From a virus, in the IMG/VR virus record IMGVR_UViG_3300001517_000005, positions 1-25,540 of that record: a stretch of DNA of 25,540 nucleotides. One strand, 5' to 3'. Under the pieces are notes generated by a model. It ran no database searches. It was not told the DNA's origin and worked only from the letters and a program-made list of their open reading frames with translations. The translations under genes were made by a program, and so were the position numbers. Below are positions 19,467-25,540 of this stretch, one piece after another. Each line of letters begins with the position of its first letter. The stretch's first letter is position 1.

Positions 19467-22400
19467 TTATAATACTTCGCTTGTATTACCATCAATTTCA
19501 ATCCAACCTTGTCCTGTGTAGCCCCAATTTGGATTGTTATCGCAAGTATATAATACAGTAATGCGCTCGCCATATAAATAAGTTCCAACGCGATACTCAT
19601 TGTCTGCTATTGGGAAACTATAATAAATAGTATCTTTTGTAACAGCGTAATTTTTATTTAATGTTGTGGTTTGCGAACTTGTGTAAGCTCTTGGTATCCA
19701 ATGAGCGCCATCAAATAACATACCGCCAACAGTAGAAGGACAAGCATAATAAACTTTAATCAACGCTGGAGAACTACCATAATAATAATCGCTCCTTTGT
19801 CCTAACGTATAAATGCCTTGTGTTGGGTCATTATATACATAGAAATTAGAAATGTTACCAGGAACTAAAGCATATGTTGCCTCTTCTGGACGGATATAAT
19901 TATAATCTGCACCAGCCAAGGTCTCTAACTCATTACGCTTAACCCATTGGTCGCCAGATTTATCCCAGTTACCTACAATCTAATAAGTGCTATTTTCTTC
20001 AGCTTGTTTACTAATAGGCATTACTAAACCTGGTGTTAAATCACGAACTTTAATACTGTATTCATCAGGGTCGGTGTAACCAGCGCTTGCGGTTGTGGTG
20101 CGTTTATACAACATAACATCAGTCGTTGGATAATCCCAACCATTAAATAAATTATAAGCATTGCTCTCTTTAACTTCTTGATTGCGATAGAAAATCAATT
20201 CTTTGCCATCTGTTGTTGTGCCTGCATAAGTGCTATAACCAGAAAACTCTGCATTATTAGCATCACTGGCTCTAAAATTATAAGCAAAGTTACCAGTTAA
20301 TAAGTCAAACATACCATTATCAGGCATTCGCATACGCTCTCCATTATATCTATACCATAATCCTTTTGGAACTGGCACATAATAATGGACCATCATAAAG
20401 TCATAGTAACTGATTACATCATAGATAATACCATAACCTCTTTGATTAGATAAATCTTGATTGGCTTTTGGATTTTTATGATATCCAGCTAAATTAACAC
20501 TATCCGTATAAGGAGTATCCATACCATAAATAATATAAGTAGTTTCACGGTTCTCATATTCATTGCCAACACCAGACATAATAGTAGGTGAAGTTCTAAA
20601 ATTAGAATAGTTCATAATGAACTTGTCACCATTTTTAATAGTCTTATATGCTTCTGGTACTTCAACTGCTTCACCATAAGAACGAGCCATTATATTATTA
20701 TAAACAGTAAAACCGTCAAATGCTTTACTCTTATCTAATCGTAATGCCATACCACCAACAGTGAGGTTGTATTTTTCTACATAATAAGTAGTAACATTTT
20801 CTAATAAATCGTGGCGCCATTCACCAGAGACATAAACATCATAATGCTCTGTATCATTTAGAGACGCACTATAACCAGGAGCAGATAAATCAAACTTAAT
20901 ACCTGGATTTAACCAATAACTACGAGTTGTTTTATTTCCATAATAAGGGTCTTGTGTAACTAAATCATAATATCTATTAAGATAGTTGTGCTGAACCCAA
21001 ATCTTAAAGGTATCTGGGTCAAAGATTGGATATACAATATATTGAGTGCCGCATCTAATTAGTTCTTCAAAACTAAACTTAATGTTATCCTTATCCCAAG
21101 TACGTGGGTTCCAAAGGTAAATACCTTCACCATAACCAGTAGGACGGAATAAATTGCGCTCAAATCCAAAATAATCCCAAGTTAATGTTAATACAGTGTC
21201 GCGATATAAAGTTGGATTTACATCAACAGTGCCGCCATAAGCTGTAATATTGCGTAAATAATTCGCCATTACATAACCGCGCTCATCAGCATACTCTACT
21301 AAATACCAATTAGTAGTGCCGCCTTCTATAGCATCACTTAAGATATCAATAGTTGTTTCTGCTGGAATTACAGTAATTACTGTCGCATCACTATTGGCCT
21401 CTCTACGCATATTTAAAGCCTAAATTGTAGTAGCGGAACCTGGGATTTCTTCTACCTACCAAGAGGTGCTAATGAAAGTATCCCAATCAGGGTTCCAATC
21501 GCTAATAGAACAACTAAATGCAGATGCTCCTAATCTATTCATTTCGGCTTTATTATCTCTGTAATAAATACAGGAATAATTGTAAATGGTTTCTGGATAT
21601 ACAATATCAATACTATGTAATGCGCTCAATGCATTATAAGTGTATTCACCAGTATAGGTGTAATTACTATTATTGTGGAAGCGCATTTTATATTTTTGAA
21701 TATCAATTCCTAAATCGGCTAAACTATGAATATTATTAAAATCAAAGTCATCTAAATTAATAACCTCAATAGCAAGACCATTATATAACTTACCTGCTTG
21801 ATTAAAACTTATATCTTCGGCTTTAATCCAACTTTCAATTTCAGGAGCGTAGCACCATAATCTATCAATAGTCATTTTGGTAATATCTATGTACTCACCA
21901 AAAGGAACAAATGTAGCATCTTCTTGATATTCAGTAGTGATATTAAGATATTGCGCGAGCATAAAGCCTTGGTGCGATTGATATTGGACTGGTAACCATT
22001 CTGTATCCCCTGTAAAGATGCTATTGCCTGTAATATCTACTGTTGTGCCATTGGGAACTGCAGTAATTATATTAGTATCATTTATCATACTAGTAGAGGA
22101 CCGCAAATTAACACTGTCATTTGCGCTTCCAGACCTAACTTCTGCTTTGCCTAAACCAGTATCATAATCTGGGTTCTAACCAGGCCCTGTAATTGGTTCA
22201 GTAGCACTTAATAAAATCCAAGCATTAGGATACTCTTTAAGACGACCCCAACCATTACGTTCTTGTATGATAGTATAAATATCTCTATTTATAATCATTG
22301 CGAGGGTTTTATATTTGCGGGCAGGCCCATAATGCAATCCAGTATATTTATCAATAACTCTTACTTGGTAAGGGATAAACTCACCAAAGTCTTCATCTTC

Positions 22401-25390
22401 ATAAAGTGCTTGATGGTAATGGTTGTAGTATTTAATTGCGCCATTTGGATTAAGTACGCGCGCAGTTAAATTACAATTCAAATAATTATTATCATTTTCA
22501 TCAAGAGTAATTAAGTTATTGTCGTAGGCTCCACCCCTATAGTATTCAACATACAAAAGGTTAGGCGCATCCTCAACTGATAACTTATCATACACTACTA
22601 TTGGGCTTGGCGCGTTAATGAAAGCCTAAATATCATCGTCTGCAATTATTTCTTCATTATAAACAATACGCCCATCACTGTAATAATCACTCTTATAAAG
22701 ATTTACATTTACACCTAAATCAGCAAGTGTATTTGCGTTTCTAATATCTTCTAAAGAAAACATTAAATCACGACTACCAATACGGACATTATCACAGTAA
22801 TAGACAACTGTTTTAGTGAAAGTTTTTAAACGATAATACACATTCACTGCGCCCATCTCATAGATTTGTACGAGGTTCATTTTATTATTATACCAAGACC
22901 AATCTGCATCTACGTCTAACCAACCATCTAAATGGAACTCGTCAGGTTTATAATCATTCCACTCAAGTATTTCTTCAATAGAAGTATTGCGGCCGCAGAA
23001 CCAAGTTGGGACATCTACAAACTTGTTTGCAATAAAAGTATTGTCATAATCATAATAATTTGTAGTAATTTTCCCATAACTCAAAACGTCAGGAATTACA
23101 TAAATGGGCGCTGGAGTATAAGTAATTTTTTCGTCATCGTGATTAGTTAATTCTCCTGGATTGCTGTCTCCAAAGAAGATTTCAGTAACAAGGTCAAACA
23201 AACCATTTTCTGGCATTGTATAATCATAAATCTAATCACCTTTTGCAACTGGAATTAAATCACGAACTAAACGGTCCTAATCGTATATTTTAAGGCTCCA
23301 TAAAATACCGCCAGCCTACCAAGGGAATGTTGGGAATACCCAATCGCCAAATAAGGCATTAACCGTTTTTGTAGTTTTACGGAGCGTCTGCTTCCCTAAT
23401 TGGACGCCACCACCACCACCAGTATCAGTAGGAGTGTTTTCGCCTGCACTTTCACCTTCACCCGAAAAATTACCCGCATCATCTTTATTTATGGTTTCCC
23501 AAATCTCTAATGTAACATTGTATATATCATCTAAATCTTGTGCTGTATAAGGATGGGTATGAACTCCCTAGACCCCAAAAGCATATCCAAAACTACCAGT
23601 AATCATACCTAAACTAGGAAAACTCCAGTAGATATTATCTAAGATATTAGGTTTGCCAGTAGTTGGATTTGTAGAAGTAAATAACGATAATGAACCACGA
23701 GGTCTTTCAATGTCTTCCCAAATTGGATTATCTTTATTTTCAATCTACCAACTAAACGGATAATTACTATCGTGGTAATTCCAAATGCTACAATAATTAT
23801 TATAAGCATCAAGCACTACGGTAAATGGATTGGCAAAGCCATAATCACCTTCCCAAGTGCCTTCTTGGTTGCCAAAATTTATATTGTCATCGTAAGAGTT
23901 TAATCCAACTGCCTGTAAGGGTTCTCCATTTACTTGCATATGACCGTCTGTTTCTTTATCTAATACGCCATTAAAAGTAAAATCTTTTTCAAAATCATAC
24001 CTCTAATATACATCAATTACGTTATAATTATCATCAGTATTAAATGGATTACCTCTACGGAAACCAGCAATAATACCAGGATGAGTATAATAAACAATGT
24101 TAAAAGAGTTTGTTGTTACTGTTTTTGTAGAAGCATATGGCTAACCATCAATCTGTGTTGGCCCATTATGAGTGTAAACCCAGGGCCCATCCGCAAATGG
24201 GATACGAGGTTTTATACTAAAATATCCTTTTGAAGCAAAACTATTACTTCTGCCATTCCAATAGTCGGTTAGTTTATCATTTGTATAACCTAACATATCA
24301 TATACACTATCATCCATAATTCGTGTAAAGGAAGGAATAACCTAAGAATACTATACCTAAATCTCATTAACAAAATCGGTTGGCCCACGATAACCAAAAA
24401 TAGTAGTGAAATCAGTATCAAAATAACTATCCCCGTGGGTTGGGGCTCTAACTCCAATAGGTTTAGAAGCACCAGTCCATTCTACTCTTAAACGGCCGAT
24501 TTCTTTTGGTTTATACCCTAAATCAAAATAAGGCACTCTCCAAGGCTAAAGGACAATCCCTGATGTAATACCTTGAGTTATTTCACGATAACTAGGATAT
24601 ATTCTATTACATAAATCTCCCCAATACAAAACCTTCTTTTCATAATAGGCTTCTGTTGGGTCGTGCGGTTCTGCGATACTATCATAAACAATAGCAATTT
24701 CATCTAATTCTACCAAAGTTAAGAAGGTATATTGAATATCACTATTTTGTAATACGCCACCATCACAATTACCAGGACGATATTTATTGATATAATTATT
24801 TGGTAACTAATCTGCTAAATAAAATGGATACGCGGGGTCAAAATCATCTAACCTAAACTCCCAAGAGGTAGATGCTACTAGATTTGCTGGGTCTATATCA
24901 TCTGTATAATAATTAACATCTAATGACTAGGTCGCGCAATCATACATTATGATATAAACATCTTTTAATTTCTCTGGGTTGTCAAGACGCTCATCCATTT
25001 CATACCATTGGTAATTTACACCATCTACATAATACTTTTCTGGTTTCATAGCGTTTTTATCAATATAGAAATCAATATATTCGCCATCTCTAAAATCAGT
25101 CTAGTCAAAATGTAAAGTAATTTCACCAATAGTCTCATAGGTTCTAATGCCATAAACCTTTTTAATGTAGCGCACAGTTGTTGTATAATCTTCTAATGGT
25201 TCTTCTTCTGGAGTATAAAAGATATCATATGGAGAATGGCTTAATACTCTTGCCAATGATACTTTCGGCTCTGGGAAAACATAGTCTGTTTTATACCCTT
25301 CTGGTTTATATTTATTAAGTCTAACAATATCACCAAAAGTAGGAACCTAGTAGAAATCACGCTCTTTTAATTGAATAGTTTCAGTATGAA
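19467..25390 (-). CDS. Giant tail/baseplate-associated adhesin-like protein, 3' part (same ORF as 1..3178 across the circular junction). It carries beta-rich repeats and several SH3b-like modules.
   Basis: The frame is preserved across the junction (offset 25,390). I checked every codon from 25390 to 19467 and found no TAA or TGA. There are 20 in-frame TAG, at 25347, 25101, 24927, 24807, 24546, 24357, 24351, 24342, 24141, 24003, 23745, 23568, 23316, 23277, 23232, 22626, 22176, 21456, 21420 and 19980. The ORF ends at TAA 19467-19469. SH3b-like segments include MRREANSDATVITVIPAETTIDIL..WYLVEY..RGYVMANYL. Confidence 0.88.
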
Positions 25391-25540
25391 GAAGCGTTGG
25401 CTCACCTGCGCCGCTATCTTGATAATAATTAACAACAATCTAATTTTCATCTTCTTCATACACGACATTAAAGATGTGTGTATTCAGCCCATCAAAACTT
25501 TTATCTATTTTATCAAAATCAGTGATAACACCTGGTTTGT
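25391..25540. repeat. Terminal direct repeat, copy B (identical to 1..150)
   Basis: Direct comparison of the two window ends shows no mismatch. Confidence 0.95.

Follow-up and report, generated by a model that had tools for sequence, protein, structure and literature searches.

A 3,033-residue, TAG-recoded phage tail protein with a Dit-like N-domain, a likely baseplate-anchored adhesin

A giant gene read through TAG codons

We analysed the virus record IMGVR_UViG_3300001517_000005 of IMG/VR, positions 1 to 25,540 (the window, meaning this whole stretch of 25,540 nucleotides), in which one open reading frame (ORF) on the minus strand, here called the giant ORF, takes up 35.8% of the genome. 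The window is a circular contig whose positions 1-150 are identical to 25391-25540, so that the genome has 25,390 bp, with a G+C content of 35% and a monotonic GC skew that is negative over its full length. The giant ORF is the reverse complement of 19467..25390 joined to 1..3178 and comprises 9,102 nt, or 3,034 codons including the stop. In the direction of transcription it follows the neck and terminator genes, the tail tube gene, a 104-aa ORF and a 67-aa ORF, and it precedes a 121-aa ORF and Tal; from the tube through the two small ORFs, the giant and the 121-aa ORF (Dit-C) to Tal, this order is kept in all relatives examined. The features of the locus are as follows.

1..3178, minus: 5' section of the giant ORF, from the start ATG at 3178-3176 through codon 1059 and one base of codon 1060
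19467..25390, minus: 3' part of the giant ORF, from the remainder of codon 1060 to the TAA at 19469-19467
25391..25540, no strand: assembly overlap of 150 bp, identical to 1-150; no additional sequence
19102..19467, minus: 121-aa ORF, the C-terminal galectin-like domain of Dit (PF22768 SPP1_Dit 4.9e-12, phrog_33 3.3e-21)
18080..19102, minus: Tal (Prophage_tail family match), 340 aa, without a C-terminal extension
3178..3688, minus: two overlapping small ORFs in the chaperone position (104 aa, 3374-3688; 67 aa, 3178-3381)
3672..4064, minus: tail tube protein (PF06199 7e-15, phrog_1407 1e-21)
5552..6490, plus: tyrosine integrase, the sole sizeable gene without TAG and the sole sizeable plus-strand gene

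Counting along the giant frame gave an ATG start, 30 TAG codons and no TGA, the sole TAA being the terminal one at 19467-19469. From the base composition of the strand, TAA and TGA together are expected at 5.6% of codons, and the probability of meeting neither in 3,033 codons is about 1e-76; the other two frames of the same stretch contain 112 and 375 of them. Read with the standard code, the giant frame falls apart into 31 pieces, of which 11 reach at least 60 aa under the ORF rule of the tool used. An ENA assembly of the same genome (L001), with 6 mismatches and an overlap of 55 bp, has its ends in the portal gene and carries the giant ORF unbroken in mid-contig, reading through window position 1/25390. 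Self-BLAST of the giant protein returned no internal matches, so a collapse of repeats during assembly is unlikely; the repeats that the protein does contain have diverged beyond the reach of BLAST, and a profile was used to define them. The initial annotation, made from the letters of the window, had described a single junction-spanning ORF of 3,033 aa and about 36% of the genome, with 30 TAG and neither TAA nor TGA before the TAA at 19467, and had considered a chance open frame implausible. The codon count and L001 bear out the first of these points, our recount agrees with the second, and the base composition puts a figure on the third. Its tally of 12 standard-code fragments of at least 60 aa, in contrast, has to be lowered to the 11 given above, while its suggestion that the start is coupled to the preceding gene is borne out by the start ATG, which shares bases with the stop TGA of the 67-aa ORF before it (TGATG) and has a GAGGAGG ahead of it.

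The giant gene is widespread. In the protein database one 3,033-aa entry is identical to it and there are over 230 full-length homologues (2,830-3,070 aa, 45-75% identity, on contigs of 24-27 kb), and in IMG/VR the gene was found at 28 loci, reaching about 3,300 aa where complete. In-frame TAG counts among these IMG/VR relatives run from 33 down to 0, and the code differs within the family: four members (L005, L007, L009 and L023) have an ORF of 2,845-3,248 aa that contains no TAG and is intact under the standard code, others have 2-33 TAG (L002, for example), and the gene of L013 (L013 9947-14386) has 8 in-frame TGA and no TAG, and looks TGA-recoded. The notion that the giant is invisible under the standard code, also put forward initially, holds for the recoded members and fails for the relatives without TAG.

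In alignments of the giant, glutamine is enriched 5.5-fold opposite TAG and is the consensus in 7 of the 14 conserved TAG columns, compared with 14 of 1,047 conserved columns overall. TAGs of the window at residues 37, 514, 728, 913, 1074 and 2131 face CAA or CAG in most relatives; the one at residue 37, within the near-invariant DGDIQPT, does so in 17 of 19 aligned relatives. When the gene was compared with two relatives, substitutions were most frequent at third codon positions, then at first and then at second positions, in each eighth of its length. Given the TAG-free relatives, the TAGs aligned with glutamine and the coding pattern of substitutions, the giant ORF is one real gene in which TAG is read as glutamine, and the proposal of a single gene with TAG as a sense codon stands.

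Nearly all genes of the window lie on the minus strand. TAG occurs in 19 of the 20 minus-strand genes examined, the exception being a 110-aa ORF, and all of them end in TAA or TGA. In window genes other than the integrase, 85 of the 275 Gln-type codons are TAG (31%); in the integrase none of 13 is, for which the chance at that rate is about 0.008. No suppressor tRNA was found in the window (ARAGORN, Rfam) or in 25 relatives; the window has no tRNA of any type and no Rfam family, and one relative has only a tRNA-Thr. Phage-encoded suppressor tRNA(CUA) is present in about 40% of TAG-recoded phages and absent in about 60%.

Domain composition and the split Dit

The following domains were recognised along the giant protein.

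2774..3178, minus: Dit N-terminal (tail-tube-like) domain, residues 1-135, from AlphaFold2 (AF2) with Foldseek, hidden Markov models (HMM) and alignment with Dit
1043..2761, minus: about seven beta-grasp (MucBP/Mub/ubiquitin-like) repeats of about 80 aa, residues 140-712, from the repeat profile, the first two modelled
323..1045, minus: module A, residues 712-952, the most conserved (70-82% identity), ending IPV...CLYDK..FFED
23124..24677, minus: module B, residues 1298-1815, with hypervariable inserts and the C-terminal motif as in A
21231..22160, minus: two SH3_3 (SH3b) domains, residues 2137-2212 and 2375-2446, flanking a beta-grasp repeat (residues 2137-2446 in all)
19470..21230, minus: module C and the C-terminal beta-rich region 2783-3033 (residues 2447-3033 in all), the most divergent between relatives

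An AF2 model of residues 1-300 (predicted local distance difference test, pLDDT, 82) matched, at a Foldseek probability of 1.0, the Dits of TP901-1 (4v96), p2 (2wzp, 4v5i) and 80alpha (6v8i) and the monocin tip (9j1k), with weaker matches to tail tube proteins. Individual members of the giant family also gave weak HMM matches to Sipho_tail and to phrog_33 ("distal tail protein Dit"). Searching with Tal by tblastn returned distant phages only (26-31% identity), and one of these, MT835666.1, served as the canonical comparator; its genes follow the order of a normal helical 1,134-aa tape measure protein (TMP), then Dit, then Tal. The N-half of its 234-aa Dit aligns to giant residues 1-89, and the C-half aligns to the 121-aa ORF of the window (34% identity, E 5e-16). 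The giant thus has the N-domain of a Dit and lacks the galectin-like domain in the same chain; it lies directly upstream of Dit-C and Tal, and no TMP gene was found upstream of it. In the window Dit-C probably starts at its second ATG (19449). In 17 relatives the giant stops at TAA or TGA, and 2-23 nt further on a separate Dit-C ORF begins with an ATG of its own, in varying frames. Because of this recurrence the splitting of Dit is judged, from the sequences, to be ancient and real. To our knowledge, every described Dit has its C-domain within one polypeptide.

A profile of the Dit N-domain, run against 1.8 billion representative proteins, recovered the giants, a class of 470-1,054 aa and many Dits of about 230 aa, the last holding an SPP1_Dit C-domain in the same chain. 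Several proteins of the 470-1,054-aa class bear Flg_new or Flg_new_2 beta-grasp repeats, and the mid-size proteins come from genomes of about 19.6 kb with the same synteny as the window and share the motif IPV…GLYD. Judged by these sequences, the giant is not unique and defines a large clade with intermediates of 600-1,050 aa.

Behind the Dit domain, a single-repeat profile of about 80 aa found about a dozen copies, at residues 140-712, 1041-1297, 1859-1995 and 2264-2325. Foldseek of the two modelled repeats returned YwfG (7yl4), a Mub repeat (3i57), Ibp of R. gnavus (7kpj) and ISG15. The MucBP and Flg_new models of Pfam gave nothing on the giant at E<0.1. The comparison of its repeat profile with the Flg_new regions of the mid-size relatives was not significant, and we therefore claim no homology between them.

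Between the repeat arrays lie three beta-rich modules, A (712-952), B (1298-1815) and C (2447-2800), which share a C-terminal motif of about 45 residues, …IPV…G.[YF]D.[VL]…F (hhalign probability 97.5 for A-B, over 49 columns, and 90 for B-C). Variation is greatest in the middles of B and C and in the last 500 residues of the protein. A profile of module A found distant stand-alone proteins of 200-400 aa, and the two examined each occupy a receptor-binding slot in the tail module of another prophage. The first has a BppU_N/collagen gene on its upstream side and CBM_5_12 and amidase genes on its downstream side; the second lies downstream of putative TMP, Dit and Tal genes.

The SH3 domains gave the sole Pfam match on the giant, SH3_3 at residues 2384-2438 (E 3.5e-13, 50 bits against a cutoff of 27); searches against PHROGs yielded no match, and PDB sequence searches with the whole giant, the N-terminal profile and the module A profile yielded nothing significant. 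The two domains at 2137-2212 and 2375-2446 match each other (hhalign probability 98) and, by their gap profile, are insertions missing from most relatives. AF2 modelled residues 1834-3033 at a pLDDT of 71, with 2783-3033 well modelled and residues 1834-1916, 2041-2138 and 2590-2634 below 50. Foldseek of this model against PDB and BFVD returned almost solely the SH3b wall-binding domains of endolysins and autolysins, including YrvJ, Psm of phiSM101, Ly7917, the LysPBC5 CBD, the AtlE repeats and lysostaphin. hhalign linked neither the C-terminal sub-domains nor a region labelled X to the SH3 domains recognised by Pfam, and this fold search is the basis for assigning SH3b more widely. Region 2783-3033 probably holds further SH3b-like units, a label taken from sequence patterns and not from the Foldseek tables, which carry no query coordinates. 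The stretch 1997-2136 is highly conserved among relatives, with an invariant H-Y-H. No catalytic fold was matched by the model of residues 1-300 or by that of 1834-3033; the folds of modules A and B lie outside these two models.

Proposed role of the giant and its alternatives

Taken together, we consider it likely that the giant is an extreme, split form of "evolved Dit" that makes a baseplate-anchored host-adhesion device. As proposed, it would be one virion protein of 3,033 residues, translated with TAG as glutamine, in which residues 1 to about 135 form the ring-forming Dit N-domain and the remaining roughly 2,900 residues make up some 30 small beta-rich modules, namely about a dozen beta-grasp repeats, the three A/B/C modules and several SH3b domains. 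Six copies of the N-domain would assemble into a hub where the tail tube ends, above a Tal trimer that closes the tube, with the separately translated 121-aa Dit-C docking beside the hub. The six long arms, each perhaps on the order of 100 nm when extended (an estimate), would then act as multivalent fibres gripping the peptidoglycan or glycopolymer surface of a Gram-positive host, probably of the Oscillospiraceae type. The SH3b domains, together with the A, B and C modules, would bind wall polymers, while the beta-grasp repeats may serve as spacers or as extra lectins, and host specificity would be set by the variable C-terminal third and the variable loops of B and C.

The 30 TAGs would also bear on timing. 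If each codon is read through with efficiency e, the full-length yield is e^30, that is 4% at 0.9 and 74% at 0.99. A full-length product would thus need nearly complete decoding of TAG, and the gene would be silent in a lysogenic state with the standard code. Such silence would fit the model in which recoding separates lysogeny, with its TAG-free integrase, from the lytic genes (Borges et al., bioRxiv 10.1101/2021.08.26.457843).

The earlier suggestion of an adhesion role, which had been based on placement after chaperone-like ORFs and before Tal and on a Dit-like N-terminus, gains from our data on each count: the gene order agrees, the N-terminus matches solved Dits by fold and, weakly, Sipho_tail and phrog_33 by HMM, and adhesion itself is supported by the MucBP/Mub-like repeats, the SH3b domains and the homologues of module A in receptor-binding protein slots. 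Several points weigh on the other side. SH3_3 is the sole Pfam, PHROG or PDB sequence match that supports any domain of the giant, and the C-domain of Dit is encoded outside its polypeptide. Presence in the particle, hexameric stoichiometry and fibre shape are predictions, and an enzymatic domain could be hidden in A, in B or in the low-confidence stretch 2041-2138. The MucBP-like repeats and the match to Ibp of R. gnavus could point to ligands of the animal host rather than of bacteria. Finally, the bacterial host is deduced from published work and from the Gram-positive-type domains; two scans of representative GTDB genomes, one with the giant and one with its mid-size relatives, found no prophage copies.

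One alternative follows from the ligands just mentioned. Instead of, or besides, a bacterial receptor, the arms may bind animal-host or environmental ligands such as mucin glycans, immunoglobulins or plant fibre, and so keep the phage in mucus or on feed particles; retention in mucus by Ig-like capsid decorations is a proposed precedent. The top fold matches of the repeats are indeed the mannose-binding YwfG, the mucus-binding Mub repeat of L. reuteri and the immunoglobulin-binding protein of R. gnavus, relatives were recovered from human faecal samples, the family occurs in gut metagenomes, and Borges et al. place the clade in human and animal guts (bioRxiv 10.1101/2021.08.26.457843). However, the SH3b domains and the homologues in receptor-binding slots suggest the bacterial wall as the target, Tal is followed by no other obvious receptor-binding protein, and the beta-grasp repeats may be spacers whose likeness in fold does not give the ligand. 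We therefore regard animal or environmental binding as unlikely to be what the arms are for.

Equally improbable, in our estimation, is that the giant supplies the missing peptidoglycan hydrolase, as a virion-associated lysin, an endolysin or both, in an unrecognised catalytic domain beside the SH3b domains. It would account for a genome that encodes a holin (phrog_13712, 2e-30) but in which no endolysin gene was detected and Tal lacks a lytic extension; lysins typically carry arrays of SH3b domains, and the conserved region 1997-2136 with its invariant H-Y-H lies outside confident modelling. Yet neither model shows a catalytic fold, no hydrolase was matched in Pfam or PDB, and the case is an argument from absence, the models leaving out residues 300-1833.

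The position of the giant raises a third alternative, that it is the tape measure, its length setting that of the tail. It is the sole very long gene and lies directly after the tail tube and the ORFs in the chaperone position, where a TMP belongs. Moreover, no TMP gene was found in the window or in L001, L005, L007, L009, L017, L023, L028, L034, L035 and L036, although these genomes still hold a tail tube, terminator, completion protein, Dit and Tal, and none was found in the sister lineages with a Dit-N protein of 679-1,054 aa and genomes of about 19.6 kb. The largest ORF besides the giant or the Dit-N protein is a collagen-like fibre, and neither the window nor its relatives offer another TMP candidate. 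Nevertheless, the giant begins with a Dit N-domain, both of its modelled parts are almost all beta, and the fraction of helix-forming residues is 0.30, compared with 0.44 in the TMP of the distant relative. It has no hydrophobic segment (maximum KD19 of 1.19 against 2.68 in that TMP) and matches no TMP family of Pfam or PHROGs. Wall-binding SH3b domains would make no sense inside a tube, and the sister lineages carry only 600-1,050 aa at this locus with the same tail genes, the size of its product spanning a five-fold range over the clade. A tape measure function is thus very improbable. The legend of Fig. 5 of Borges et al. does define 'TMP' for the maps of the Garnet and Topaz prophages, whichever gene carries that label.

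If the giant is no tape measure, the whole clade (19-27 kb, siphovirus-like) might build its tail without one, with a Dit-N fusion of 600-3,300 aa at the TMP locus and a novel control of initiation and length, perhaps also a channel through the wall. We offer this tentatively and hold it doubtful. The literature was searched for tailed phages that lack a tape measure, with no relevant result, and we know of no such TMP-independent mechanism of length control in long-tailed phages. Should the absence of a TMP be confirmed, it would call into question a rule regarded as universal for these phages.

The last reading, that there is no single protein because TAG is a true stop and the locus holds short genes, pseudogene debris or a misassembled junction, can draw on the 31 standard-code pieces and the lack of a suppressor tRNA in the phage, and has next to no chance in view of the vanishing probability of a frame without TAA and TGA, the four relatives with the same gene and no TAG, TAGs that fall within folded domains at conserved glutamine positions, the coding substitution pattern along the whole gene, the span of the junction in L001 with no internal repeats to collapse, and the TAGs carried by the other minus-strand genes.

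The recoding has consequences for annotation. Gene calling with the standard code shreds the dominant gene into about 30 pieces, and the likely main host-interaction protein is lost from annotations and from models of host range, in a clade that is widespread in the gut and probably in the rumen. The gene also demands near-perfect decoding of TAG from a phage without a suppressor tRNA; a message with 30 TAGs is a stringent reporter of recoding efficiency and sharpens the question of how phages switch code.

Neighbouring genes and relation to known systems

The giant is the middle gene of a chain of five (104-aa ORF, 67-aa ORF, giant, Dit-C and Tal) in which stops and starts overlap as ATGGATGA, TGATG, TAATG and ATGA, which suggests from the sequence that translation of the tail-tip module is coupled across the five. 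The label of tail-assembly chaperones for the 104-aa and 67-aa ORFs is one of position only; they gave no family matches and no -1 slippery heptamer was found between them, the 67-aa ORF lying in the +1 frame relative to the 104-aa ORF with its own ATG. The 104-aa ORF carries a motif, GISPTDFYNMTEDEA, known from tail assembly chaperones.

Elsewhere in the genome, the neck protein at 4623-5216 (minus; 197 aa, HK97 gp10-like, phrog_5) has a C-terminal extension made of a helical stretch and a glycine-rich hydrophobic segment, GDMGGMLIGAAMLWLAFPILVNLYGIM, which is unusual for this family and keeps its size among relatives. The collagen-like fibre, a 752-aa protein at 6722-8980 (minus), has runs of Gly-X-Y, three copies of SAYE.AV.NGF.GTE.EWL.SL.G and a beta-rich C-terminus, and its place between the head-tail connector and neck genes is unusual for a fibre; relatives have proteins of 380-570 aa at this locus, sometimes with LRR_5. 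The holin gene (12458-12847, minus) is oddly placed between the portal and MuF-like genes, and a second holin-like membrane protein of 71 aa (6487-6702, minus) adjoins the integrase. A NUMOD4/HNH_3 endonuclease (17170-17754, minus; phrog_59 2e-31) is encoded between Tal on one side and the replication and small-terminase genes on the other, and a 188-aa DnaD-like or replication-initiator-like protein (16164-16730) is the sole replication gene seen.

Megablast of the genome against INPHARED phages gave no match. An ENA scaffold of 30.8 kb, L034, exceeds the genome in length and has a homologue of the giant; it repeats the scaffold, MuF and portal region with differences, has an N6_N4 methyltransferase in addition and lacks an integrase; we considered it as a prophage with host flanks and rejected this, as it is probably a concatemer or a chimera of two strains.

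Set against it by description only, the genome fits the published Topaz clade, that is, TAG-recoded temperate gut phages of 22 +/- 3 kb with an Oscillospiraceae host, a TAG-avoiding integrase and a unidirectional skew (Borges et al., bioRxiv 10.1101/2021.08.26.457843). Like Topaz, the window genome is small (25.4 kb), has in-frame TAG in structural genes and an integrase without it, shows a unidirectional GC skew and has close relatives with mixed codes. The text of the Topaz paper takes up neither a giant gene for a tail protein, nor a Dit split in two, nor the lack of a TMP (bioRxiv 10.1101/2021.08.26.457843).

Among protein families, the repeats of the giant resemble those of the MucBP/Mub/InlB-B-repeat adhesins (YwfG 7yl4, Mub 3i57, Ibp 7kpj), which likewise combine tandem arrays of ubiquitin-like repeats of about 80 aa with lectin-like domains. 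Unlike these sortase-anchored surface proteins, the giant is a phage tail protein, and its repeats fall below the Pfam repeat models. With the SH3b domains of endolysins and autolysins (Psm 4krt, lysostaphin 4lxc, YrvJ 9a7d, LysPBC5 CBD 6ilu) it shares SH3_3 and an arrangement in tandem copies, whereas in the giant no catalytic domain is attached, the protein is a structural one of the tail, and two of the copies are lineage-specific insertions.

A functional parallel is the evolved Dit, known from phages of Gram-positive bacteria (PMC10688798, PMC7533335, PMC7291167). Evolved Dits too have the N-terminal ring domain of Dit and a gene just upstream of Tal, and in them extra saccharide- or wall-binding modules make the hub an adhesion device. 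The giant differs in size, being about 12-fold larger than a canonical Dit and exceeding the retrieved evolved Dits (470-1,054 aa) several-fold, in that its extension follows the N-domain and is not looped into the galectin domain, in the encoding of the galectin-like C-domain by a separate gene, and in having no TMP gene before it. The series from Dits of 230 aa through proteins of 600-1,050 aa to those of 2,850-3,300 aa shows how a tail hub can turn into a fibre-like adhesin, the ancestral Dit here being split into two genes. The giant would function like an evolved Dit, but it is a new, split and far larger variant.

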